NCBI GenBank assembly: GCA_964014485.1
Contig: CAXHAT010000211.1
Location: forward strand, 1 to 12,996
DNA from: an uncultured Deferribacteres bacterium
Lineage (GTDB): Bacteria > Zhuqueibacterota > Zhuqueibacteria > Zhuqueibacterales > Geothermadaptataceae
DNA length: 12,996 nt
Reading direction: 5' to 3'
The translations under genes were made by a program, and so were the position numbers. A model generated the notes under the pieces. That model did no database searches, was not told the origin of the DNA, and saw only the letters and a list, made by a program, of their open reading frames with translations. Shown piece by piece: positions 1,161-12,813 of the stretch (position 1 is the first letter of the stretch; each line of letters begins with the position of its first letter).

Positions 1161-1874
1161 TCAGGACATTTCATTGGCGTCCACGGCAAAATGCGCCTCG
1201 AGGTCTCGCAAAGTATTCTCTCCGGTTTCTATATCTCGGATTATGCAGCCTTTTTCCAGAATTGCAATCCGGTCGCAAACTTCCGTCACGTGATTCAAAT
1301 CGTGGCTTGAAATCAGCATGGTCATTTCTCGTTCAGCGTGCAGTTTTTTCAGGAGATTTTTGAGTCGGATGACGGAAGTCGGGTCGAGATGCGGAAAAGG
1401 TTCGTCCAGGACAAGCACGTCGGGGTTCGCCGCCAGCGCCGCCGCAATGCCGACTTTCTTCTGATTTCCCTTCGACAGCTCCCGGATGTACTTGTTTTTC
1501 CCGATGATTTCACCATTAAAAAACTCTTTAAAAACGCCCAAAGCGACATACGATTTTTCCTTTGAAAATCCGTGCAGGCTCCCTAAAAATTCAAAGTATT
1601 CTTCAGGCGTCAGAAAGTCGATCAGAAAGTGTTCGTCCAAATATGAGCCTGTGTAGCTCTTCCAATGCTCGCTTTGTTTAACGTTCACGCCGTTCGAGCT
1701 AACCAGACCGTCATCCGCCTGGATCAAATCCAAGATGAGGCGGAAGAACGTCGTTTTTCCCGCGCCGTTGTTGCCGACCAGCCCAAAACATTCTCCTTCT
1801 GCAATCGACAATTCCGGGAGGTCTAAAACTGTGACGCCGTCATAGATTTTCTTGAGATTTTTTGCTTCAATCAT
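1161..1874 (-). CDS. ABC transporter ATP-binding protein (export type)
   Basis: Walker A GNNGAGKTT, signature-like LSKGNQKK, Walker B VLVLDEP, H-loop ISSHD. Start is ATG at 1874 or GTG at 1880. Confidence 0.95.
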   Translation of the reverse strand: MIEAKNLKKIYDGVTVLDLPELSIAEGECFGLVGNNGAGKTTFFRLILDLIQADDGLVSSNGVNVKQSEHWKSYTGSYLDEHFLIDFLTPEEYFEFLGSLHGFSKEKSYVALGVFKEFFNGEIIGKNKYIRELSKGNQKKVGIAAALAANPDVLVLDEPFPHLDPTSVIRLKNLLKKLHAEREMTMLISSHDLNHVTEVCDRIAILEKGCIIRDIETGENTLRDLEAHFAVDANEMS

Positions 1875-1896
1875 AGCCACGCCTTTTGCTCAATTT

Positions 1897-2100
1897 TTAT
1901 TAAATGATGTTACGCACGTCGCAAACATAAGGAGTGCAAAGCTTGCTTTGCCTTTCACTCGCCGCCGACAAGAAAAGCGGCGAATTCAGACTTCTTGGCG
2001 CAGAAGTTCGAAAATATCCGCAACTGAATAGCAAGGCAAGCCTTGCACTCCATTTTCTGTACGATCCGCGTAACATCAGTTATTAAATGATGTTACGCGC
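1897..2100. mobile_element. Miniature inverted-repeat element (1904-2079) flanked by TTATTAA direct repeats, followed by a second copy of the left end
   Basis: TGATGTTACGC (1905-1915) and GCGTAACATCA (2068-2078) form a perfect 11-bp inverted repeat. TTATTAA lies at 1897-1903 and 2080-2086. TTATTAAATGATGTTACGC occurs at both 1897-1915 and 2080-2098. Confidence 0.6.
1931..2051. repeat. Inverted pair of 21-bp REP-like palindromes
   Basis: GGAGTGCAAAGCTTGCTTTGC (1931-1951) and GCAAGGCAAGCCTTGCACTCC (2031-2051) are 19/21 reverse complements, and each is an internal hairpin. Confidence 0.75.
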
Positions 2101-2253
2101 TGCCCGAAACAGAATGTGCCACTTTGTTTCTCCCTAATTGAGAACCACAGTTGAAATTGAGACAGCCCAAACACCGAAACGCTTGTTTCGGTCATTCCCA
2201 CACAGGCGGGAATCCAGGGAGTTGGCGCCATTTTCTGGATTCCCGCCTGCGCG

Positions 2254-2532
2254 CACGCGCGATAAAAAGAATGTGGATAACTTGCACCTTGTCCCAGAGG
2301 GACATTCGAAAATAGCCAGCCAATTCATTGGCTGGACTGAAGTTACGCCTGATTTCCATAAAGTCCCGCAAGGGACGGTTGAAGTTCGGCGCCGTGTAAA
2401 AATCTCAGTCGTCCCTGCCGGGACTTCACTCGAAACACGGCTGATTTTGCCCCGCCAATGAATTGGCGGGCTAGTTTCAGTCGTCCCGCTGGGACTGATT
2501 TGAGTTATCCACATTCTTTATTATCGCGCGTG
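2254..2532. mobile_element. 279-bp non-autonomous MITE with 29/30-bp TIRs and a 10-bp target-site duplication
   Basis: Left TIR CACGCGCGATAAAAAGAATGTGGATAACT (2254-2282) and right TIR AGTTATCCACATTCTTTATTATCGCGCGTG (2503-2532) differ by a single 1-nt indel. The direct repeat CGCCTGCGCG flanks them at 2244-2253 and 2533-2542. No transposase is encoded inside. Confidence 0.88.
2291..2495. repeat. REPIN-like array of six hairpins inside the MITE
   Basis: GTCCC-N3/4-GGGAC at 2291-2303, 2363-2376, 2411-2424 and 2483-2495. CCAGCCAAT-TC-ATTGGCTGG at 2316-2335 and CCCGCCAAT-GA-ATTGGCGGG at 2451-2470. The order is mirror-symmetric. Confidence 0.8.
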
Positions 2533-2606
2533 CGCCTGCGCGGGAATGACGTAAAGGCAACGCTTTTATTTAATCGCTACGTTATCAAGCGGGCGCGAAA
2601 CACCAG

Positions 2607-4082
2607 TTAGGAGGCTTCTCTGAATCCGGCGGCGATTTTATATTTTTGTCTGAGAAACATCGAGACGGTCAGATTGAGAAGCGGCCTGGCAAGCAACAAT
2701 CCAATCAGTCCGATAACGCCTATCGCCAGCACGCCTGCGTACGGTTGATTATTAAGTTTGAACGGCAGATAAATCAGAATTGGAATAATGATCAACAACA
2801 GAACCATGAAAAATTGCTTCGAATCCTTACCCTGCATGCTGAAAGTGCTCACGTCCAGATCAATTTTTTGTCGATTCAAAGTTGCCTTCATCAAGAGAAA
2901 AAACGAATTGACGCCGAGGTTAAAAAGCAGGACGGCGGTGTTCAGGTACAAGATATCCAGCCCAAAGTAAGCGAAGGGCGTCAAAAGCAAATAAAGCAGA
3001 AGGCATGAGACAATCATGATGACAAGCTTTGCTTTGAAGTACAAATACGGATTTATCCGCCTGGTGATGATCGTGTCAAAATACCCGCTCTCCCAGGAAA
3101 GAATAAACTGACCGTAGGTGATCATAAACATGCCAGTGAAAAACACGCTCATATAGATGAGCATAAACTCATATTTTCTATACTCTTCCATCCCAAAAAA
3201 CATAAATCCCAAGAGCAGAATGGTCGGGCTGAGATAGAGCGTCGATTTGAGTCGTTTGTTGCGCAAAATGAGCTTCAACTCCAGCGAAATCAGTTCACCG
3301 AGACCTCCGAATCTGTCAAGAAACGTCATTTGCTCGCCAACGTCGCCGCGCGTTTTTTCTCTGACGCCCAAATCATCAAGGTAAGTGTGCGCTTTTAGAA
3401 ATCTGAAGTTCAAGCCGTACAGACACGCCAAAAGAACTAGAGGCCCCAGCAGCAAAATCTTGTTTTGAAGCACGCTGCCGAAGATCGTCGTCGAAAGTTC
3501 GGAAAGTGAAAAAATGGCGAACTGGTCAAGCAAAAAAATCACGACGAGAACCGCCAGGAAGGCAAAATGCGTTTTGGGGTGAACAAAGTTTTGTCTTTTG
3601 ATATAAATCGCCAAATAGCTGTTACAAAGCAGCATAATAAAAATGGTCGCCAGCCAAATCGCCGCGCCGCCCTGCGAATCAGCGGCGATGATTTTAACTG
3701 CGAAAGGTGCGGCCACGAGCAAGGGCAGGAAATTGAACAAGCTCCAGAGTGATTTTGACAGCAGAAAGTGCGTCACCGTCGACGACTTCACCTTGAGATG
3801 CAGGTATGGCCGGATAGAAAGGCCAGGGACTTTTTGCAGCATGAGCCGCATCAAAAGATCAACGCCGAAATAGTAGAGCAGGAAGCTATTGAACAAGACG
3901 GTTGGGCCGGATTCCGAAGCGCGCGCCGCGAGAAGCCTGTCAAGGTAGAGGCCGATTGCGAGAAGGTTCAGCGCCACCAGGAAAATGAGCAGTCCGAGAA
4001 AAATATTGGCAACGATTCTACGCTGCCAGACAGATGATCGAAAAAATTGCTTCCATTGATGGACGACAAGCCATTTTATCAT
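2607..4082 (-). CDS. Polytopic membrane protein, probable ABC exporter permease (DUF5687-like)
   Basis: 491-aa ORF with many hydrophobic segments in two blocks. Motifs HQWKQFFRS, IRPYLHL, LELKLILRNKR and YGQFILSWES resemble DUF5687 proteins as recalled. It is co-oriented upstream of an ABC ATPase. Confidence 0.75.
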   Translation of the reverse strand: MIKWLVVHQWKQFFRSSVWQRRIVANIFLGLLIFLVALNLLAIGLYLDRLLAARASESGPTVLFNSFLLYYFGVDLLMRLMLQKVPGLSIRPYLHLKVKSSTVTHFLLSKSLWSLFNFLPLLVAAPFAVKIIAADSQGGAAIWLATIFIMLLCNSYLAIYIKRQNFVHPKTHFAFLAVLVVIFLLDQFAIFSLSELSTTIFGSVLQNKILLLGPLVLLACLYGLNFRFLKAHTYLDDLGVREKTRGDVGEQMTFLDRFGGLGELISLELKLILRNKRLKSTLYLSPTILLLGFMFFGMEEYRKYEFMLIYMSVFFTGMFMITYGQFILSWESGYFDTIITRRINPYLYFKAKLVIMIVSCLLLYLLLTPFAYFGLDILYLNTAVLLFNLGVNSFFLLMKATLNRQKIDLDVSTFSMQGKDSKQFFMVLLLIIIPILIYLPFKLNNQPYAGVLAIGVIGLIGLLLARPLLNLTVSMFLRQKYKIAAGFREAS

Positions 4083-4617: not shown

Positions 4618-5490
4618 ATGTCGTTAATTCTGACCGCGATCGCGACAATGGCCGGCATTACGCTCGCGCTGGCCAGTCTGCTGGTGCTGGCGAATCGAAA
4701 GCTTTATGTTTATGAAGACCCTCGCATCGATGTTGTCGAAGACATGCTTCCCCATGCAAATTGCGGCGCGTGCGGATTCCCCGGATGCCGGCCTTTCGCC
4801 GAAGCCTTGGTGGGAGGAAAAACAGAACCTGCCAAGTGTACAGTCAGTTCGGAGGAAGGCCGCGTTGCCATTGCCAATTACCTGGGCGTGGACGCGGGCT
4901 CGCAGGAAAAAATCGTTGCGAGACTGGCGTGTGCGGGCGGCGTCAACGTCGCGCGGATGCAAGCGAGATATCAGGGCATGGAGTCCTGCCGGGCGGCGGC
5001 GCTTGTTTCCGGCGGCGGCAAGGGATGCTCTTGGGGCTGTCTCGGCTTTGGCGATTGCGAAGTGGTGTGCGATTTTGACGCGATTTCGATGACTCCGTGG
5101 TCGCTGCCGGTGGTGGACGAAGCCAAATGCACGGCCTGCGGCGATTGCGTGGACATTTGCCCGAAAGACCTGTTTTCACTGCATCCGGACAGCCGCCGTC
5201 TTTGGGTCGCATGCAAAAGTGAAGAGGCCGGTGACGAGATTCTCGAAGAATGTGAAGTGGCCTGCACTGCCTGCGCCCGCTGCGCGATGGACGCCCCAAA
5301 CGGCCTGATAGCCATGCAAAACAACCTGCCGGTCGTCGATTATTCAAAAAATCATACATCCCAAGTTCCGATTCAGCGCTGCCCGACAGGTGCGATTGTG
5401 TGGCTGGAACAAAACGGAGAGATTATCAAGGGTAAAGAAAGCAAGAAAATTGTTAGGCGGAGTGCCAGGCCCGTGGCGTCGACGCTTTGA
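4618..5490 (+). CDS. rnfB: Rnf electron transport complex subunit B (membrane-anchored polyferredoxin)
   Basis: N-terminal hydrophobic anchor followed by VYEDPRID. FeS domain LPHANCGACGFPGC...C, then GCSWGCLGFGDCEVVCDFDAI and CTACGDCVDICP. rnfC lies nearby on the same strand. Confidence 0.93.
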   Translation: MSLILTAIATMAGITLALASLLVLANRKLYVYEDPRIDVVEDMLPHANCGACGFPGCRPFAEALVGGKTEPAKCTVSSEEGRVAIANYLGVDAGSQEKIVARLACAGGVNVARMQARYQGMESCRAAALVSGGGKGCSWGCLGFGDCEVVCDFDAISMTPWSLPVVDEAKCTACGDCVDICPKDLFSLHPDSRRLWVACKSEEAGDEILEECEVACTACARCAMDAPNGLIAMQNNLPVVDYSKNHTSQVPIQRCPTGAIVWLEQNGEIIKGKESKKIVRRSARPVASTL

Positions 5491-5514
5491 CTTTATCGGT
5501 CTCCATAATATTAT
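5487..5514 (+). promoter_or_regulatory. Possible sigma70-type promoter overlapping the rnfB stop codon
   Basis: TTGACT (5487-5492), a 16-bp spacer, then TATTAT (5509-5514). Each hexamer is a 5/6 match to consensus. Confidence 0.3.
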
Positions 5515-5531
5515 TAACTGGTGTTACGCGC
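5511..5531 (+). repeat. Solo copy of the TTATTAA + (A/C)TG(A/G)TGTTACGC element end
   Basis: TTATTAACTGGTGTTACGCGC matches TTATTAAATGATGTTACGCGC at 2080-2100 at 19/21 positions. Confidence 0.6.
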
Positions 5532-5567
5532 AGCAAAGCATTTCCGAGACTCAAACGCAAACAGCGG

Positions 5568-5691
5568 CTCGTTCCCAAACTCCAGTTTGGGAATAGAAAT
5601 GGGCTCGAAACTCCGGTTTCGAATCAAAGAACTCACTCGAAACTGGAGTTTCGAGTGCAATTGCGTTCCCAATCCGGAGATTGGGAACGAG
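5568..5691. repeat. 124-bp four-hairpin REPIN-like element
   Basis: Termini CTCGTTCCCAA ... TTGGGAACGAG are a perfect 11-bp inverted repeat. Hairpins lie at 5572-5593, 5605-5622, 5634-5657 and 5664-5689, with loops TCCA, TCCG, TGGA and CGGA. Confidence 0.85.
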
Positions 5692-6004
5692 AATAAAGGG
5701 GAAATCCAGACGCTTCGCGCCTTTGGTTGACGCTTATGCGTGCAGGCAGGAGCGAGTATGACATTTTTCGTAGTTGAGTATAAATTGGCGGTTTATGAGT
5801 ACAGGTTAGAATAACCCCAAATAATGGATAAGCCTTTGGTTTCTCTGAATTTCTCAAATTCGCATAAATTTTCACCAGCACGACGAGTAAACCTGATTTT
5901 GCTTGTTCAGATCATTGCATTTGCGTTTTCTTTGAAGTGAGAAGTTCGCTTACCCGTTAATTTGAGAAGATTCATATTTCGGAAATTTCACGTTTTAACC
6001 AGGG

Positions 6005-9000
6005 ATGAGCAGCATGTCGAAAGCCAAAAAACAATTTAAATACCCCGGAACGCGCGCGGCGATGGACGGCAATACCGCGGTCATCATGTGCGAACGCGAA
6101 TCGTCGGACGCCGCAGGCGCATACCCGATCACGCCGTCGACGCAAATGGGCGAATACTGGGCCGAAGCAGCCGCAGCCGGACATCTCAATATTTCAGGCC
6201 GACCTTTGATCTTCATTGAGCCCGAGGGCGAACATGCCGCCGCTGCTGTCACTGCCGGGATGGCGATGACCGGATTGCGTGCGGCTAATTTTTCCTCCGG
6301 TCAGGGCATTGCCTACATGCACGAATCGCTGTACGCCGCCGTCGGCAAGCGCTTGACCTACGTGCTCAATATCGGCGCGCGGGCAATGACAAAATCCACG
6401 CTGAATGTTCACGCCGGTCATGATGATTACCACTGTGTGGATGACACCGGATTTTTTCAGCTTTTTGCCAAAAACGCCCAGGAAGCGGCCGATTTCAACA
6501 TCATTGCCCACCGCATAGCGGAACTGGCGCTGAATCCCGGCGTCGTGGCGCAGGACGGATTTCTGACCACGCATCTGATCGAATCGGTGCAGGTGCCGGA
6601 ACGCGACTTGATCGCGGAGTATCTCGGCAAGCCTGACGACATGATTGAAACGCCGACGCCGGCGCAGCGATTAATTTATGGCGATACGCGCCGCCGAATT
6701 CCAGAGTTGTGGGACGTCGACAATCCGATGATGGCGGGCATCGTGCAGAATCAGGACGCCTACATGCAGAGCGTAGCTTCCCAGCGCCCGTTCTTTTTCG
6801 ATCATCTACAGGAATTCACGGATCAGGCGTTCGAAGAATTCTACGCCCTGACCGGACGCAGGTATGGCCGGGTACAAACTTACCGCGCAGATGACGCCGA
6901 ATATCTGATTCTCGGGCAGGGCAGCATCATTCCGAGCGCTGAAGCGGTGGTGGATTATTTGCGTGAATCGAGGAAGATCAAAGTGGGCGTGGTGAACATG
7001 AGCATGTTTCGCCCCTTCCCTTCTGATCTCGTCGGCAAAGTTCTCAAAGGCAAAAAAGCGGTCGCCGTGCTCGAGCGACTCGATCAGCCGCTGGCGGAAG
7101 ACCTGCCGTTGATGCGGGAAATCCGCGCGACTTTGAGCAAATGTCAGGAAAATGGTCGTGCGGGGAAATCTCCCCTGCCCTACCCCGCGCTTGAGAGCTT
7201 TAAAAAGGCCGATGACGCTCCGGCGCTCTACTCCGGTTCCTTTGGCATGGGCAGCCGCGACTTACAGCCGGAAGGTTTGATTGCGGCGGTGGAAAACATG
7301 CTGCCAGACGGTCTGCATAAGAAACTGTTTTATCTTAGCATCGACTTCATTCGTGACAAGCCGTTTACCCCGAAGCAGGCCGTGCATCAGCAGAATATTG
7401 AAAAAGACTACCCGCATGTGAAGCAGTTGGCGCTTCGCGGCAGCGAAAATCCGAACTTGATGCCCAAAGACAGCATCACGGTGCGGTTTCATTCCGTCGG
7501 CGGCTGGGGCGCGATGACGACCGGTAAAAACCTCGCGATGACGTTGTTCGACTTGCTTGGCTACCACATCAAAGCCAATCCAAAATACGGCTCGGAGAAA
7601 AAGGGCCAGCCGACGACATACTATCTTTCCGCGGCGCCGGAGCCGATTCGCATCAATTGCGAGTACCACTACGTCGACGTTGTGTTGTCGCCGGATCCCA
7701 ATGTATTCGAGCATACGAACGCTCTGGCCGGTTTGAAAAAAGGCGGCGTGTTCATCATCCAGAGCGATCAAGGCGCGCCGGAAAAAGTCTGGGCGGAGAT
7801 TCCGTACGGCTACCGGCAGATCATCGTGAAAAACGAGATCAAAGTCTACTACATCGACGCCTTCAAAGTGGCTCGTGCGGAAGCCACTGATTCGGATTTG
7901 CAACTGCGGATGCAGGGCATCGCTTTCCAGGGCGCCTTCTTCGCCGCTTCGCCCGTAATGCAGCAGGCAGGCCTGACTGAAGCGGAGTTGTTCAAAGCCA
8001 TCCATGATCAGCTTGAGCACAAGTTCGGCCACAAAGGGGCGCGGGTTGTGGAGGACAATATGCGCGTCGTCCGGCGCGGCTTCGATGAAATCCATGAGAT
8101 TCAAAACAAGCCGCTCAACGCCTCCAATGGCAAAGCCGAAGCCGCGCAGATTGAGAAAATGCTCCCCCTCATGCTCAAACAACAGCCGCAGAGCCAGGCG
8201 CCGCTTTCCGATATTCACCGTTTCTGGGAACAGACCGGCAATTTCTACGCGCGCGGCATGGGCAGCGACAACATTACCGATCCGTTCATCGGACTGAGCG
8301 TAATGCCTGCCGTCACCGGCGTCTTTCGCGACATGACCGGCATCCGTTTCGAGCATCCGGTCTGGGATCCGGAGAAATGCACGGCTTGCGCCGCGTGCTG
8401 GACGATTTGTCCTGACACAGCCATCCCGGGACTGGTCAACGATCTGTCTGAGATTCTGGACACAACCGTAAAACGGGTGAGAAAGAACGGCCATGCCGTG
8501 AAGCTGCTTCCCAAGGCAACCCGCGTGATGGAGCAGAAACTGCGATTGCTCTTTGCCGAAGCGAAGGAAACCGATCCGGTGCAGGATTTGATCGGCGAGG
8601 CGATTACGCAGACCAGCGTCGACAGCACGTTCCCTGACGCAGACAGGGATGCGCTAAAGCAGGAATTGGAGTGGTTCAAGGAGGAAATCTGGGACTACCA
8701 ATTTGCCCTGTCCCGGCCCTACTACACCGTGCGTGAGAAGAAACAGGCGGGCGACGGCGGACTCTTGAGCATCACCGTCAACCCTTACACCTGCAAGGGT
8801 TGCATGGAATGTGTGGCGGTGTGTGATGACGACGCGCTTAAACCTGTTACTCAGACGAAGGAATCGATCGACCAACTCCGGCAGAATTGGGATTTTTGGC
8901 TTGATCTGCCAAACACGCCCAAAAAATTCATTCGCGTGGACGATCTCGAACAGGGCATCGGCGCGTTAGAAACCATTCTGCTGGACAAACGCAACTACAT

Positions 9001-10954
9001 GTCATTGATGAGCGGCGACGGAGCCTGTCTGGGCTGCACCGAAAAGACCGTGATCCATCTCTTCACCGCTACGATAGAAGCGCTCATGCAGCCGCGCATT
9101 GAAAAGCACGTGGTGAAACTCGATGATCTCATCCAGCGGCTCGAAAAGCACATTCAGCAGAAGCTGCTCGGCGGCATGGAGGTCACCGATCCTGCGAAAA
9201 TCGGAAGCGTCCTCGATCAGTTCCAAGGCAACGATTTGACGCTTTCCGGGTTGGCGGGAAAACTGGAACAAGAACGAGGCGGCGATCCCATCGATCCGGC
9301 CTGGCTGAGACGGGTGACGCAATTGGTTGCGAAATTGAAGCAGTTGAAATGGAAATACACGGAAGGGACGACCGGCCGCGGACGCGCCGCGATGGGCATT
9401 TTGAACGCGACGGGCTGCACTTCCGTTTGGGGCAGCACCTACCCGTTCAACCCATATCCGTTTCCGTGGGCGAACCATCTGTTTCAGGACAGCACTTCCA
9501 TGGCCATGGGCGTGTTTGAAGGTCACATGGCCAAGATGGCCGAAGGTTTCTCAGCCGTCAGAATGGCGGAGCTCGAACTTAGCGACGAATACAATTCCGA
9601 AAAACACGACGAGTTCTTTTCCTACTTCAACTGGCACCAGTTTACGGATGAGGAATGGCTGCTGTGCCCGCCTGTTGTGGCCGTTGGCGGCGACGGCGCC
9701 ATGTACGACATCGGCTTCCAGAACCTTTCCCGCATGATGGCCTCCGGCAAACCGATCAAAGCCTTTGTGGTCGATACGCAGGTCTACTCAAACACAGGCG
9801 GCCAGGCGTGTACGTCAGGCTTCATCGGTCAAATCTCCGACATGGCTCAGTACGGCAAAGCCATCAAAGGCAAAGAAGAACCGCGCAAGGAAATCGGTCT
9901 GATCGGCATGGCGCATCGCACGACATATGTGCTGCAGAGCACGAGTGCGCACCCCAGCCACATGATCGAGGGATTCGTCCAGGGCTTGACGGCCCGGCGA
10001 CCGGCGCTGTTCAACATCTTTTGTCCCTGCCAGCCGGAGCACGGCATTGGGGACGACATGGGACAGCATCAATCAAAATTAATCGTGGAATCGCGAGCCT
10101 ATCCATTGTTTCGCTACAATCCTGAAAACGGTAAAACGCCGCAGGAATGCTTTGATCTGGAAGGCAATCCCGCCATGGATGAGAAGTGGCCGAAATATAC
10201 GATTCACTACCTCGACGGAAAGCGTGAGAAGACGATGGAACTGCCCATGACTTTTGCCGACTACGCCGTCACCGAAGTCCGGTTCCGCAAGCATTTCCGT
10301 AAAGCGCCTCCAGACACGTGGAACGATAACATGGTGCTCCTGGCCGACTTTCTCGAAATGGATGAAGATGAACGAGAAGGCAAATTCCCTTACATCTGGG
10401 CGGTCGATCCGGCGCAGAATCTCATGCGGCTGATGGTCGCCAAGCCGATTGTGGAATCCTGCGAAGAACGCATGGATTTCTGGGCGATGCTAAAGGCTCT
10501 CGCGGGCGCCGAGAGGAAGGCCGAAGCGGCGGAAGACCAGACCGAAAAAATACGCGCCGAAGTCGTTCGGAAAATCACTTCCGGGCTGTTGCAGCTTGCC
10601 GGAGGGAACGGCGCCGGATTAACCGCGCTGGCAGAATTACCTGTGACGCCAGAAGTCGCTCCTGCTGCAAGTGAGGCCGCAACCGGGGCTGAACCCGCGA
10701 GCGACTACATGGCCCCTTGGCTGGAAACGGAAGAATGCACATCCTGCGATGAATGCATCAAAATCAATCCGAATATTTTCGAATACAATGGCGACAAGAA
10801 GGCGTTCATCAAAGATCCGAACGGCGGGCCGTATTCCGACCTCGTCAAAGCAGCGGAGAAGTGTACCGCACAGGTAATTCACCCTGGTCTTCCGGCAAAC
10901 AACTCGGAGAAGGATATCGAGAAGTGGATCGAGCGTGGGAAGAAGTTCAACTGA
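6005..10954 (+). CDS. Large single-chain pyruvate/2-oxoacid:ferredoxin oxidoreductase (PFOR/NifJ-like) with a fused C-terminal ferredoxin
   Basis: 1649 aa. Motifs: AYPITPS; FRPFP; gamma-like domain FHSVGGWGAMTTGK...YGSEKKG; CTACAACWTICP and CKGCMECVAVC; GACLGC; NATGCTSVWG; TPP-binding GGDGAMYDIG...YSNTGGQ; CPCQPEHG; C-terminal CTSCDEC...AAEKC. An alternative start is ATG at 6014. Confidence 0.93.
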   Translation: MSSMSKAKKQFKYPGTRAAMDGNTAVIMCERESSDAAGAYPITPSTQMGEYWAEAAAAGHLNISGRPLIFIEPEGEHAAAAVTAGMAMTGLRAANFSSGQGIAYMHESLYAAVGKRLTYVLNIGARAMTKSTLNVHAGHDDYHCVDDTGFFQLFAKNAQEAADFNIIAHRIAELALNPGVVAQDGFLTTHLIESVQVPERDLIAEYLGKPDDMIETPTPAQRLIYGDTRRRIPELWDVDNPMMAGIVQNQDAYMQSVASQRPFFFDHLQEFTDQAFEEFYALTGRRYGRVQTYRADDAEYLILGQGSIIPSAEAVVDYLRESRKIKVGVVNMSMFRPFPSDLVGKVLKGKKAVAVLERLDQPLAEDLPLMREIRATLSKCQENGRAGKSPLPYPALESFKKADDAPALYSGSFGMGSRDLQPEGLIAAVENMLPDGLHKKLFYLSIDFIRDKPFTPKQAVHQQNIEKDYPHVKQLALRGSENPNLMPKDSITVRFHSVGGWGAMTTGKNLAMTLFDLLGYHIKANPKYGSEKKGQPTTYYLSAAPEPIRINCEYHYVDVVLSPDPNVFEHTNALAGLKKGGVFIIQSDQGAPEKVWAEIPYGYRQIIVKNEIKVYYIDAFKVARAEATDSDLQLRMQGIAFQGAFFAASPVMQQAGLTEAELFKAIHDQLEHKFGHKGARVVEDNMRVVRRGFDEIHEIQNKPLNASNGKAEAAQIEKMLPLMLKQQPQSQAPLSDIHRFWEQTGNFYARGMGSDNITDPFIGLSVMPAVTGVFRDMTGIRFEHPVWDPEKCTACAACWTICPDTAIPGLVNDLSEILDTTVKRVRKNGHAVKLLPKATRVMEQKLRLLFAEAKETDPVQDLIGEAITQTSVDSTFPDADRDALKQELEWFKEEIWDYQFALSRPYYTVREKKQAGDGGLLSITVNPYTCKGCMECVAVCDDDALKPVTQTKESIDQLRQNWDFWLDLPNTPKKFIRVDDLEQGIGALETILLDKRNYMSLMSGDGACLGCTEKTVIHLFTATIEALMQPRIEKHVVKLDDLIQRLEKHIQQKLLGGMEVTDPAKIGSVLDQFQGNDLTLSGLAGKLEQERGGDPIDPAWLRRVTQLVAKLKQLKWKYTEGTTGRGRAAMGILNATGCTSVWGSTYPFNPYPFPWANHLFQDSTSMAMGVFEGHMAKMAEGFSAVRMAELELSDEYNSEKHDEFFSYFNWHQFTDEEWLLCPPVVAVGGDGAMYDIGFQNLSRMMASGKPIKAFVVDTQVYSNTGGQACTSGFIGQISDMAQYGKAIKGKEEPRKEIGLIGMAHRTTYVLQSTSAHPSHMIEGFVQGLTARRPALFNIFCPCQPEHGIGDDMGQHQSKLIVESRAYPLFRYNPENGKTPQECFDLEGNPAMDEKWPKYTIHYLDGKREKTMELPMTFADYAVTEVRFRKHFRKAPPDTWNDNMVLLADFLEMDEDEREGKFPYIWAVDPAQNLMRLMVAKPIVESCEERMDFWAMLKALAGAERKAEAAEDQTEKIRAEVVRKITSGLLQLAGGNGAGLTALAELPVTPEVAPAASEAATGAEPASDYMAPWLETEECTSCDECIKINPNIFEYNGDKKAFIKDPNGGPYSDLVKAAEKCTAQVIHPGLPANNSEKDIEKWIERGKKFN

Positions 10955-10981
10955 TAGCAATCGACGAGAAACCAGATCACA

Positions 10982-11311
10982 ATGCTCAAAGAACAGCCTG
11001 TGCGCCCGGTTGAATTGATTAAGTCTATCGAATATCAGACCGGCGCCGTCGTCAGCAAAACGCTGGTGAAAACGAAAACCGGCTCGATCACGCTCTTCGC
11101 ATTCGATAGAGAACAGGAGTTGAGCGAGCACACAACGCCTCATCATGCGTTCTTGAATGTCCTGGAAGGTGAGGCGAAAATTACAATTGCCGGAAATTCA
11201 CACCGACTGCAAGCCGGACAGGCGATGGAATTGCCCGCCGGAGTCCCACACGCCGTTGAAGCTGTTGATAAATTCAAAATGCTGCTAATAATGCTGAAGT
11301 CTTCTGAGTGA
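10982..11311 (+). CDS. Cupin domain protein
   Basis: 109 aa with TLFAFD..QELSEHT..., VLEGEA and LPAGVPHAV cupin motifs. It starts 27 bp after the PFOR stop. Confidence 0.9.
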   Translation: MLKEQPVRPVELIKSIEYQTGAVVSKTLVKTKTGSITLFAFDREQELSEHTTPHHAFLNVLEGEAKITIAGNSHRLQAGQAMELPAGVPHAVEAVDKFKMLLIMLKSSE

Positions 11312-11460
11312 TTTCCGAGCATCCGCCGCGGATTGAAACCCGCGGCTAAGTTGAAAAATCGCCTGAAGGCGGCTAAAATCACAGCCTGCTTTAGCAGGGT
11401 TAAACAGAATTAGCCTGACGGTTCAACGTCAGGCGGAGTGCTGGCAAAATGCTGAAGTCT
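11290..11460. mobile_element. 145-bp palindromic (REPIN-like) insert between 13-bp direct repeats
   Basis: AATGCTGAAGTCT at 11290-11302 and 11448-11460. Internal hairpins are GCCGCGG-ATTGAAAC-CCGCGGC, CGCCT-GA-AGGCG, CCTGCT-TT-AGCAGG and GCCTGACG-GTTCAA-CGTCAGGC. Confidence 0.65.
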
Positions 11461-11469
11461 GAAAAATAG

Positions 11470-12813
11470 ATGCTGTCACCAATTTTCACCAAACGGAAAA
11501 GTTTCGCCCACGGAGTACATCCCCCGGAGGCCAAAAATGAGACCAACGGCGCTCCGATCAAGCAGTTTCCCTTCGCACCGGTGATGGTGATCCCGCTTTC
11601 GCAGCACATAGGCGCCCCGGCAAAACCGATTGTGAGCGAAGGGCAAGAAGTTCTGCGCGGCCAAATGATTGCCGAGGCGGACGGGATGGTCTCCGTGCCG
11701 ATGCATGCTCCGGCCTCCGGTACGGTGAAGAGAATTGCTTTGGCGCCGAACGCGGCAGGAAAAATGGTGCAGAGCATCTATCTCCAACCGTTTCCCGCCG
11801 CTGGTCAGGAAGTCAACGAGGGCGACCCGTGCGATTTGGAATCGGCTTCTCCGGAGCAGATCATCGCCGCAATTCAAAACGCGGGCATCGTCGGCTTGGG
11901 CGGCGCTGCTTTCCCTACGCATGTGAAGCTGAAAATTCCTGACGGCAAATCAGTGGATACGCTCATCATCAACGGCGTCGAATGTGAACCGTATTTGACG
12001 ACCGACCACCGGGTGATGCTCGAGCAGAAGGAAGATATTTTCACCGGAATTCGATATGTCCTCAAGGCGTGCGGGGCGCAGCGAGCGATCATCGGCGTCG
12101 AAGCGAACAAATTGGACGCTGCCGACGCTCTCAGGCGCGCGGCTCCGGCAGGCGATCCGATTTCCGTCGAAGTCGTTCAAGTGAAATATCCGCAGGGCGC
12201 GGAGAAAATGTTGATTACCGCGTTGCTGGGCAGAGAAGTTCCCTCGGGCGGACTGCCGATGGACGTCAACGTTGTTGTCGTCAACGTAGCGACGGCAGCG
12301 GAAATTGGCCGATTGCTGCCGCACGGACGAGGCATTCAGGAGCGGGTGATTACCATCACGGGCCCGGGCGTGAGGGAGAAAGGCAATTACTTGATTCCTA
12401 TCGGCACGCCGCTGCGCTTTGCGTTGGAGCAAATCGGTTTGGCGAGCAATGCCAGCCGAGTTTTTCTCGGCGGCCCAATGATGGGCGCAGCCGTCTCCAG
12501 CCTCGATATTCCGATCACAAAAGGAACGTCCGGCGTCGTCGTATTCACGGAAAATGAGGTGCGACGCATCCCGAACCGCGTGCTGCCGTGCATCCACTGC
12601 GCCTATTGCGTTGACGTCTGCCCGCTTTTCTTGAACCCGTCAAAACTTGGTATTTTGGCAAAATACGCCGAATACGACGAAATGGCGGCGCATTATCACC
12701 TGATGGACTGTTTCGAATGCGGCGCGTGCTCGTACGTCTGCCCTTCGAACATCCCGCTGGTGCAATATTTCCGCATGGCGAAGGGCATTGTTCGAGAACG
12801 GAAAGCGGCTTGA
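11470..12813 (+). CDS. rnfC: Rnf electron transport complex subunit C (NADH/FMN-binding, 2x[4Fe-4S])
   Basis: HGVHPP, PLSQHIGAPA, GIVGLGGAAFPTHVK, INGVECEPYLTTD, KYPQGAEK, GGPMMG, CIHCAYCVDVCP and CFECGACSYVCPSNIPL. Confidence 0.97.
   Translation: MLSPIFTKRKSFAHGVHPPEAKNETNGAPIKQFPFAPVMVIPLSQHIGAPAKPIVSEGQEVLRGQMIAEADGMVSVPMHAPASGTVKRIALAPNAAGKMVQSIYLQPFPAAGQEVNEGDPCDLESASPEQIIAAIQNAGIVGLGGAAFPTHVKLKIPDGKSVDTLIINGVECEPYLTTDHRVMLEQKEDIFTGIRYVLKACGAQRAIIGVEANKLDAADALRRAAPAGDPISVEVVQVKYPQGAEKMLITALLGREVPSGGLPMDVNVVVVNVATAAEIGRLLPHGRGIQERVITITGPGVREKGNYLIPIGTPLRFALEQIGLASNASRVFLGGPMMGAAVSSLDIPITKGTSGVVVFTENEVRRIPNRVLPCIHCAYCVDVCPLFLNPSKLGILAKYAEYDEMAAHYHLMDCFECGACSYVCPSNIPLVQYFRMAKGIVRERKAA

Follow-up and report, generated by a model that had tools for sequence, protein, structure and literature searches.

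What has split the palindromic repeat at positions 2235..2550 of this DNA, and which enzyme could have moved it there? The window, i.e. the whole stretch of 12,996 nucleotides that was analysed, is contig C211 of an 8.4-Mb genome in 465 contigs. Sequence analysis revealed a gene-less element of 279 bp at 2254..2532, with CA at its start and TG at its finish. Its left (2254..2282, plus strand) and right (2503..2532, minus strand) terminal inverted repeats agree in 29 of 30 aligned columns, with one extra base in the right end, and identical 10-mers at 2244..2253 and 2533..2542 (plus strand) bracket the element. Excision of 2254..2542 yields a 27-mer, which agrees with the reverse complement of 2191..2217 at 25 of 27 positions. 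The earlier note had claimed the exact 10-bp duplication, the CA...TG ends, the 29/30-bp inverted repeats and a deletion that restores a REP in near reverse complement to its neighbour, and all of these were reproduced from the sequence.

The element has the traits of a MITE. It is short, has terminal inverted repeats, contains neither a start-to-stop gene nor a conserved open frame (five of the six frames carry stops), and occurs in multiple copies with common boundaries and target duplications. BLASTN, which the earlier note had advised for the terminal repeat, and pattern searches in its own genome show a multi-copy family, with eight full-length copies of 278-280 bp, 86-99% identical in pairs, and 44 ends, one of which (on C57) is probably a chance match inside a gene. 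There are many more ends than full copies, and these run off contig edges. Among the eight copies, 4 of 30 alignment columns vary in the left end, 6 of 30 in the right end and 54 of 221 in the middle, so that the left end is better conserved than the middle and the right end about as variable as the middle. The element folds into a single long hairpin (z = -13.5). A reading as a structured RNA was rejected, as the fold results from nested inverted repeats.

From the window copy alone the MITE boundary is ambiguous, because the flanking GCG/CGC prolongs the inverted repeat, and duplications of 4, 6, 8 or 10 bp all fit. The boundary is fixed at CAC...GTG by copies in other targets (C95, C105, C116) and by the ends of the related IS. 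The shorter duplications with longer ends (4, 6 or 8 bp) were rejected on these three copies and on the flanks of the relatives. Duplications recur in the other copies, as the earlier note had proposed to check, being exact or with one mismatch at 7 of 11 paired ends. They are exact over 10 bp at C30, C52 and C211, have one mismatch at C158, C289 and C131, and are exact over 11 bp at C95, where the MITE sits in a different hairpin. No direct duplication was found at four of the 11 paired ends (C40, C296, C388, C116). Three diverged ends begin with CAT (C10, C105, C131). Five sites resemble footprints of imprecise MITE loss (C2, C238, C247, C343, C116) and keep CA, CAC or CAT after the duplication; a sixth match, on C34, is doubtful.

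The interrupted repeat (2235..2550, minus strand) fits the NTS consensus, which contains dRS3 (Chenal et al. 2025, PMC11893778), and CGTC-1 of Di Nocera et al. 2013 (PMC3733652) equals NTS. It is the second member of an inverted doublet, whose partner at 2191..2217 (plus strand) is intact. The genome contains 121 intact inverted NTS doublets, including intact paralogues of the window's doublet on C5, C23, C42 and C50, and the consensus with its oriented flanks, which the MITE target matches, has 173 genome copies at up to one mismatch. An empty version of the window's own site was not seen in three sequencing runs of one study, in which no contig crosses the locus and no junction bypasses the element. 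One position of NTS (at most one substitution) is adjoined by 33 of the 44 MITE ends, against a genome background of 7.4e-5 per position. Given this concentration and the eight full-length copies, the MITE copies are not chance matches. The MITE occurs in both orientations relative to NTS, with its left end by the GTC half six times and by the TGG half eight times. The duplication at NTS comprises the 4-base loop with three stem bases on either side, whereas the C95 target has a 5-base loop and an 11-bp duplication. The duplicated loop also changes with the target (GCAG, GAAG, CTCC). A hairpin-centred palindrome whose centre can vary is a better description of the target than this one REP.

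When the strand is folded from 2232 to 2552, the outer stem of NTS stays paired at the base of one long hairpin. SsnA tolerates loop loss or extension (Chenal et al., PMC11893778), and for this reason an NTS split by the MITE may still be cut by SsnA, as we would predict. At one of six GIY-YIG loci examined, an SsnA-like 95-aa gene on C343, an NTS lies downstream and a footprinted NTS upstream. As a side observation, the upstream copy at this locus (C343:147-434 and 560-590) carries a three-base footprint, as if a MITE had been lost there.

The MITE is one layer in a stack of repeats. The three-level nesting described in the earlier note is real, but the levels number four, because the MITE middle is itself a repeat also present in other shells. 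The outermost is a shell (2087..2606), which holds the NTS doublet; inside this lies the MITE, and at the core a palindromic cargo (2290..2496). The right duplication of the shell is degenerate, and its right end abuts the stop codon of a DUF5687 gene. The end motif of the shell has 595 genome matches at up to two substitutions, and a neighbouring shell of the same family (1904..2079) is flanked by an exact 7-bp duplication (1897-1903 and 2080-2086). The nest lies between two co-oriented genes on the minus strand, encoding a DUF5687 membrane protein upstream (2607..4082; PF18940) and an ABC transporter ATPase downstream (1161..1880; PF00005). Between them, about 720 bp (1896-2610) are stacked repeats. 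Further along, at 4618-12813, the plus strand carries a gene cluster; we take its products to be a ferredoxin like RnfB, a protein of 1,649 aa resembling pyruvate:ferredoxin oxidoreductase, a cupin and a protein like RnfC.

Two arms of the cargo match Rfam Acido-Lenti-1 (RF01687), with 42.5 bits for 2451-2496 and 35.2 bits for 2290-2335 at a cut-off of 37. Similar cargo is found inside other shells of the genome and, without MITE ends, in 8 of 40 relatives. It was also observed as a four-hairpin unit in at least three shell kinds and in relatives (C49, C117, C12, C9, C122, C109; L002-L019), which suggests that the Acido-Lenti-1 motif is a mobile DNA palindrome in these genomes. Neither the cargo hairpin nor NTS was present within 800 bp of any of the seven Y1/RAYT loci in the genome. 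Elsewhere, the MITE ends surround a different middle (C296, C156, C351) or a shortened one (C131, C32). The MITE is a pair of ends around an exchangeable palindromic cargo.

A candidate for the mobilising enzyme emerged when repeats with a break at the same base were listed. At the same NTS position there is a second family of ends, which start with CAT, and it includes an IS of 3,010 bp (C388:473-3482) with a DDE gene inside and an exact 10-bp duplication. The earlier note had pointed to DDE transposases such as those of the IS4 family, and here an IS4-family element with the same target is present in the same genome. Its transposase passes NF033592 (transpos_IS4_1) with 197.8 bits at a cut-off of 115, and D102, D174, E305 and a YREK at 298-312 agree with the IS4-family spacings D(60-110)D(100-150)E and Y(2)R(3)E(6)K. 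The nearest named relatives of a close homologue are IS231A/C/F/R/S/Y, ISBce2, ISBth4 and IS1151, at 25-30% identity. Both ends of the C388 IS fit the IS231 signature CAT-------AA--TAA, and its 10-bp duplication falls within the 10-12-bp range (both from Table 1 of De Palmenaer et al. 2008, PMC2266710). The transposase class is likely IS231-like. Near its 5' end, the IS is interrupted by an ISAs1 element (975-2220, with own ends and a 10-bp duplication) and by a 297-bp repeat (597-893), which has further copies on C50 and C15. A MITE copy adjoins the IS; at C388 473-3764 (L031), the IS4 element and this copy, which is without its first bases, share one NTS.

The C388 transposase is the sole homologue in the assembly of its own genome. 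A PF01609 listing alone gives the further DDE genes as IS1182, ISNCY, IS1380, IS5 and one unrelated IS4. The latter, on C25 at about 31410-32930 (NF033592, 145 bits), has different ends and is apparently inserted in another palindromic repeat within an outer shell. Elsewhere, scoring of 7,996 candidates gave 1,013 relatives of the C388 transposase at E <= 1e-40, the best of which shows about 50% identity, and 4 of 166 other genomes of the phylum contain a match at E <= 1e-30.

How these relatives select their targets was examined at the best 80 of 535 metagenome loci and at six genome loci. Both IS ends were recovered at 64 of the 86 loci, and 12 have an exact duplication, of 9 bp (six times), 10 bp (five times) or 11 bp (once). 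The inner stem measures 3 bp at nine of these 12 loci and 4 bp at two, so that a half-site rule suits the data better than a fixed distance from the loop. The rule reads CC, then CG(C/A), 3-6 bases and (G/T)CG, and can be summarised as inverted half-sites around a 3-5-base centre. It fits 91 of 127 ends of metagenome relatives (background 342/50,000, 0.7%) and 36 of 43 MITE ends (background 785/100,000, 0.8%), counts that describe rather than test, because the rule comes from the very data that are counted and the loci include duplicates (L169/L171, L196/L198, L170/L173). The MITE targets outside NTS, on C95 and C105, satisfy it as well. None of 135 Bacillales IS231-type ends follows the rule; 60 of the 135 end in GGG-N4-6-CCC, and seven start with CAC. 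Flanks resembling NTS/dRS3 occur at 12 of the 80 metagenome loci.

Outside the duplication, the flanks of the relatives form 54 pairs at positions 3-10, compared to 31.1 +/- 4.2 when flanks are swapped among sites. None of 20,000 swaps reached 54 pairs, and the pairing exceeds what the consensus explains. From this excess it follows that the targets of the clade are real hairpins or long palindromes, whether extruded or not in the hands of the enzyme. Exact direct duplications were found in only 8 of 56 testable metagenome pairs, probably because collapsed assemblies join the flanks of different copies. A separate pattern is that the duplication loop is reverse-complemented on one side at seven of the 56 testable loci (L154, L160, L175, L176, L188, L195, L148), against the eight exact direct copies, and also in the genome at C40:16716-16993 and C296:399-605. 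At L148, a direct copy results if a second left end is used. These inversions could stem from assembly chimeras, from recombination between copies or from correction of a quasi-palindrome. Beside the MITE, loop-inverted half sites were not in significant excess (2/15 vs 6/208, Fisher p = 0.09).

The MITE and the C388 IS have in common the cut position, the rule also at non-NTS targets, a CA..GCG..AA start, and their adjacency. Their link is further favoured by the diverged MITE ends with CAT at the start and by a DnaA-box motif in the ends of both. Compared with the clade end consensus, itself gathered with a pattern favouring that consensus, the MITE end agrees at positions 1-2, 6-8, 11-12 and 17 and differs at 3, 9, 10, 13, 15 and 16. 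The MITE ends do not match the IS231 signature in full: AA is present at 11-12, positions 1-3 read CAC, and there is no TAA at 15-17, since the end differs from the clade consensus at 15 and 16. The earlier note had also proposed to locate an autonomous transposase with the MITE's ends; none with identical ends was found, and those of the C388 IS are related only. No transposase gene was seen between MITE-type ends in the own genome, the 166 phylum genomes, GTDB, the JGI metagenomes or IMG/VR, and no MITE-type end beside an IS in the retrieved homologue loci. Outside the own genome, the MITE ends were not found with an exact 32-base pattern in GTDB contigs, a 29-base pattern in JGI metagenomes, a 28-mer at up to three mismatches in the 166 other phylum genomes, a relaxed pattern in IMG/VR, or BLASTN in PLSDB. 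As the ends fit the IS231 signature partly, and no transposase with identical ends was found, we can only infer the exact partner.

Judging from sequence, there is a high probability that the MITE was mobilised in trans by an IS231-like IS4-family DDE transposase. If so, the mobiliser was either the C388-type enzyme or a sister enzyme, lost or unassembled, with close to equal chances and the sister presumably a shade ahead. This agrees with the view of the earlier note, that of a REP-targeting non-autonomous element moved in trans, which gains support from the copy number, the fixed insertion point, the 10-11-bp duplications and the IS4 element with the same target. In a comparison made without ISfinder, its further suggestion of a possibly undescribed group applies to a clade or subgroup only, not to a family. 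The MITE behaves as an IS231-type derivative and is not classed as a member of IS231. Several MITE copies have common outer flanks, so passive amplification probably accounts for some of them, and the number of independent insertions is below that of the copies.

Each MITE end also carries a 9-mer, at 2272..2280 (minus strand) and 2505..2513 (plus strand), which we take to be a perfect DnaA box. The 9-mer flanks dnaA on C46, at 35034 and 36743. Ends of the MITE family hold 41 of the genome's 79 perfect copies; one MITE can thereby supply half of these 9-mers in a genome. Both ends of the C388 IS contain the perfect 9-mer, which in the left end is shifted inwards by exactly 10 bases relative to the MITE; among the relatives, only 2 of 128 ends contain it. 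IS50/Tn5 likewise has IS4-family ends with a DnaA site (PMC3347997). In Tn5 this site overlaps the transposase-binding end (PMC3347997), whereas the putative box here lies 19-31 bases in.

Passive amplification might even be the whole story, if one or a few ancient NTS insertions had been spread by the outer shell, by gene conversion among hundreds of NTS, or by an SsnA-like nuclease, with no repeated targeting. The outer flanks common to C10/C22/C30/C40, to C30/C52/C253 and to C71/C179/C289 are consistent with such a spread, and so is the NTS-flanked SsnA-like gene on C343. However, it does not sit well with two insertion orientations, with a duplicated loop that differs by target, or with a MITE in non-NTS hairpins with its own duplication (C95, exact 11 bp; C105), and the cut made by SsnA falls upstream of the hairpin rather than in the stem next to the loop (PMC11893778 section 8). 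As a sole explanation it is already weakened by C95, and we regard it as quite improbable.

Repeated targeting by a different enzyme would be another solution. The ISAs1-family transposase nested in the C388 IS (NF033564, 193 bits) has a MITE copy no further than about 1.3 kb away, made a 10-bp duplication, and has ends that also start with CACG. Beyond these four bases, though, its end no longer agrees with that of the MITE, so the two do not share ends; its own target is not a palindrome, it is without a DnaA box, and it has no second clear end copy in the genome (about 70 matches at up to three substitutions were judged by eye to be chance). As mobiliser of the MITE it is barely credible. 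An IS4-family enzyme of another subgroup, IS4Sa-like as in ISRm22, could have been absent from the assembly and have converged on the target. IS4Sa ends begin with CA, are relaxed at the third base and go with duplications of 8-10 bp (PMC2266710), and ISRm22 inserts at REP symmetry axes (PMC1525189). Yet the IS4Sa signature has T at position 9 where the MITE has A (PMC2266710), one duplication measures 11 bp, the MITE and the IS231-like element agree in the DnaA-box motif and in the exact position of the cut, and the second IS4 gene of the genome (C25) has unrelated ends and another target. Such an enzyme is highly unlikely to have been the mobiliser.

If the MITE was moved in trans by an IS231-like enzyme, as we prefer, the clade enzyme probably binds two inverted half-sites (CC then CGC or CGA) that face each other across a 3-5-base centre, and joins the element ends three bases in from each edge of this centre. 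The duplication would then equal the centre plus six bases, as with the 10 bp in NTS, the 11 bp in the C95 hairpin and the 9-11 bp in the relatives. The many insertions in NTS would follow from the fact that no other perfect target is as common in the genome. The chemistry was probably cut-and-paste, as known for IS231A, and movement in trans is known for MIC231 (PMC2266710, PMC6199540); DnaA or an extruded hairpin may play a role. These elements could be joined into one reading, in which a widespread, unnamed IS231-like clade reads DNA structure. Its enzyme would capture an extruded hairpin or cruciform and cut three bp below the loop on each arm, so that the loop length would set the length of the duplication. 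As the insert's own ends pair up, the host hairpin stem would survive and NTS would stay an SsnA substrate. The MITE would do no harm as a passenger, and through it NTS repeats would come to carry other palindromes, and the DnaA boxes would time the jump to replication, when hairpins form. In this complete form, we consider the reading unlikely.

IS4 elements targeting REPs and IS231-derived elements without a transposase are known already. MIC231 resembles the MITE in having IS231-type ends without a transposase, movement in trans and an exchangeable middle, but it measures 0.7-3 kb and carries genes, unlike the 279-bp MITE with palindromic repeats as cargo (PMC6199540). In ISRm22, also of the IS4 family, every copy lies in a REP, at the axis of the palindrome (Tobes and Pareja 2006, PMC1525189); this element differs in belonging to the IS4Sa subgroup, in being autonomous, and in its 6-bp repeats and different REP (PMC1525189). 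With the IS231 subgroup of IS4, the clade has in common the YREK, the CAT...AA..TAA ends of the C388 IS and its relatives, a duplication of about one helical turn, palindromic target ends and a size from 1.4 kb (PMC2266710). In contrast to IS231, the clade occurs outside Bacillales at 25-30% identity only, its target is CC-CG(C/A)...(G/T)CG-GG inside longer hairpins rather than GGG...CCC, its duplications go down to 9 bp, and the MITE ends fit the signature only partly (PMC2266710). The target itself is like dRS3/NTS/CGTC-1 in matching the consensus, in its inverted dimers and in the NTS-flanked SsnA-like gene, whereas the accessible text of these papers names a phage recombinase, not an IS4 element or MITE, as targeting dRS3 (PMC11893778, PMC3733652).

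Literature searches, which covered mainly papers outside subscription and not ISfinder, yielded no description of an IS231-like element or MITE in dRS3/NTS. New are a broad clade of IS231-like elements outside Bacillales, whose palindromic target is sharp, tolerates different spacers and includes Neisseria-type dRS3/NTS in unrelated samples, and a MITE that exploits the target of this clade. The locus offers a simple system for asking whether a DDE transposase recognises the sequence of half-sites or the structure of an extruded hairpin. The enzyme of the clade is a candidate site-selective integrase, whose insertions spare genes. For the NTS repeats, MITE and IS insertion is one named force acting on them.

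A second MITE family, with canonical IS231-type ends, occupies the same targets (C328:63-241, C204:9465-9629, C148:13978-14142, C318:232-277). Its duplications are exact over 10 bp at C328 and C204, and the C318 member is only 46 bp long. One end of this family is also present in the window, at 5738 on the minus strand, inside another shell at 5511-5760.
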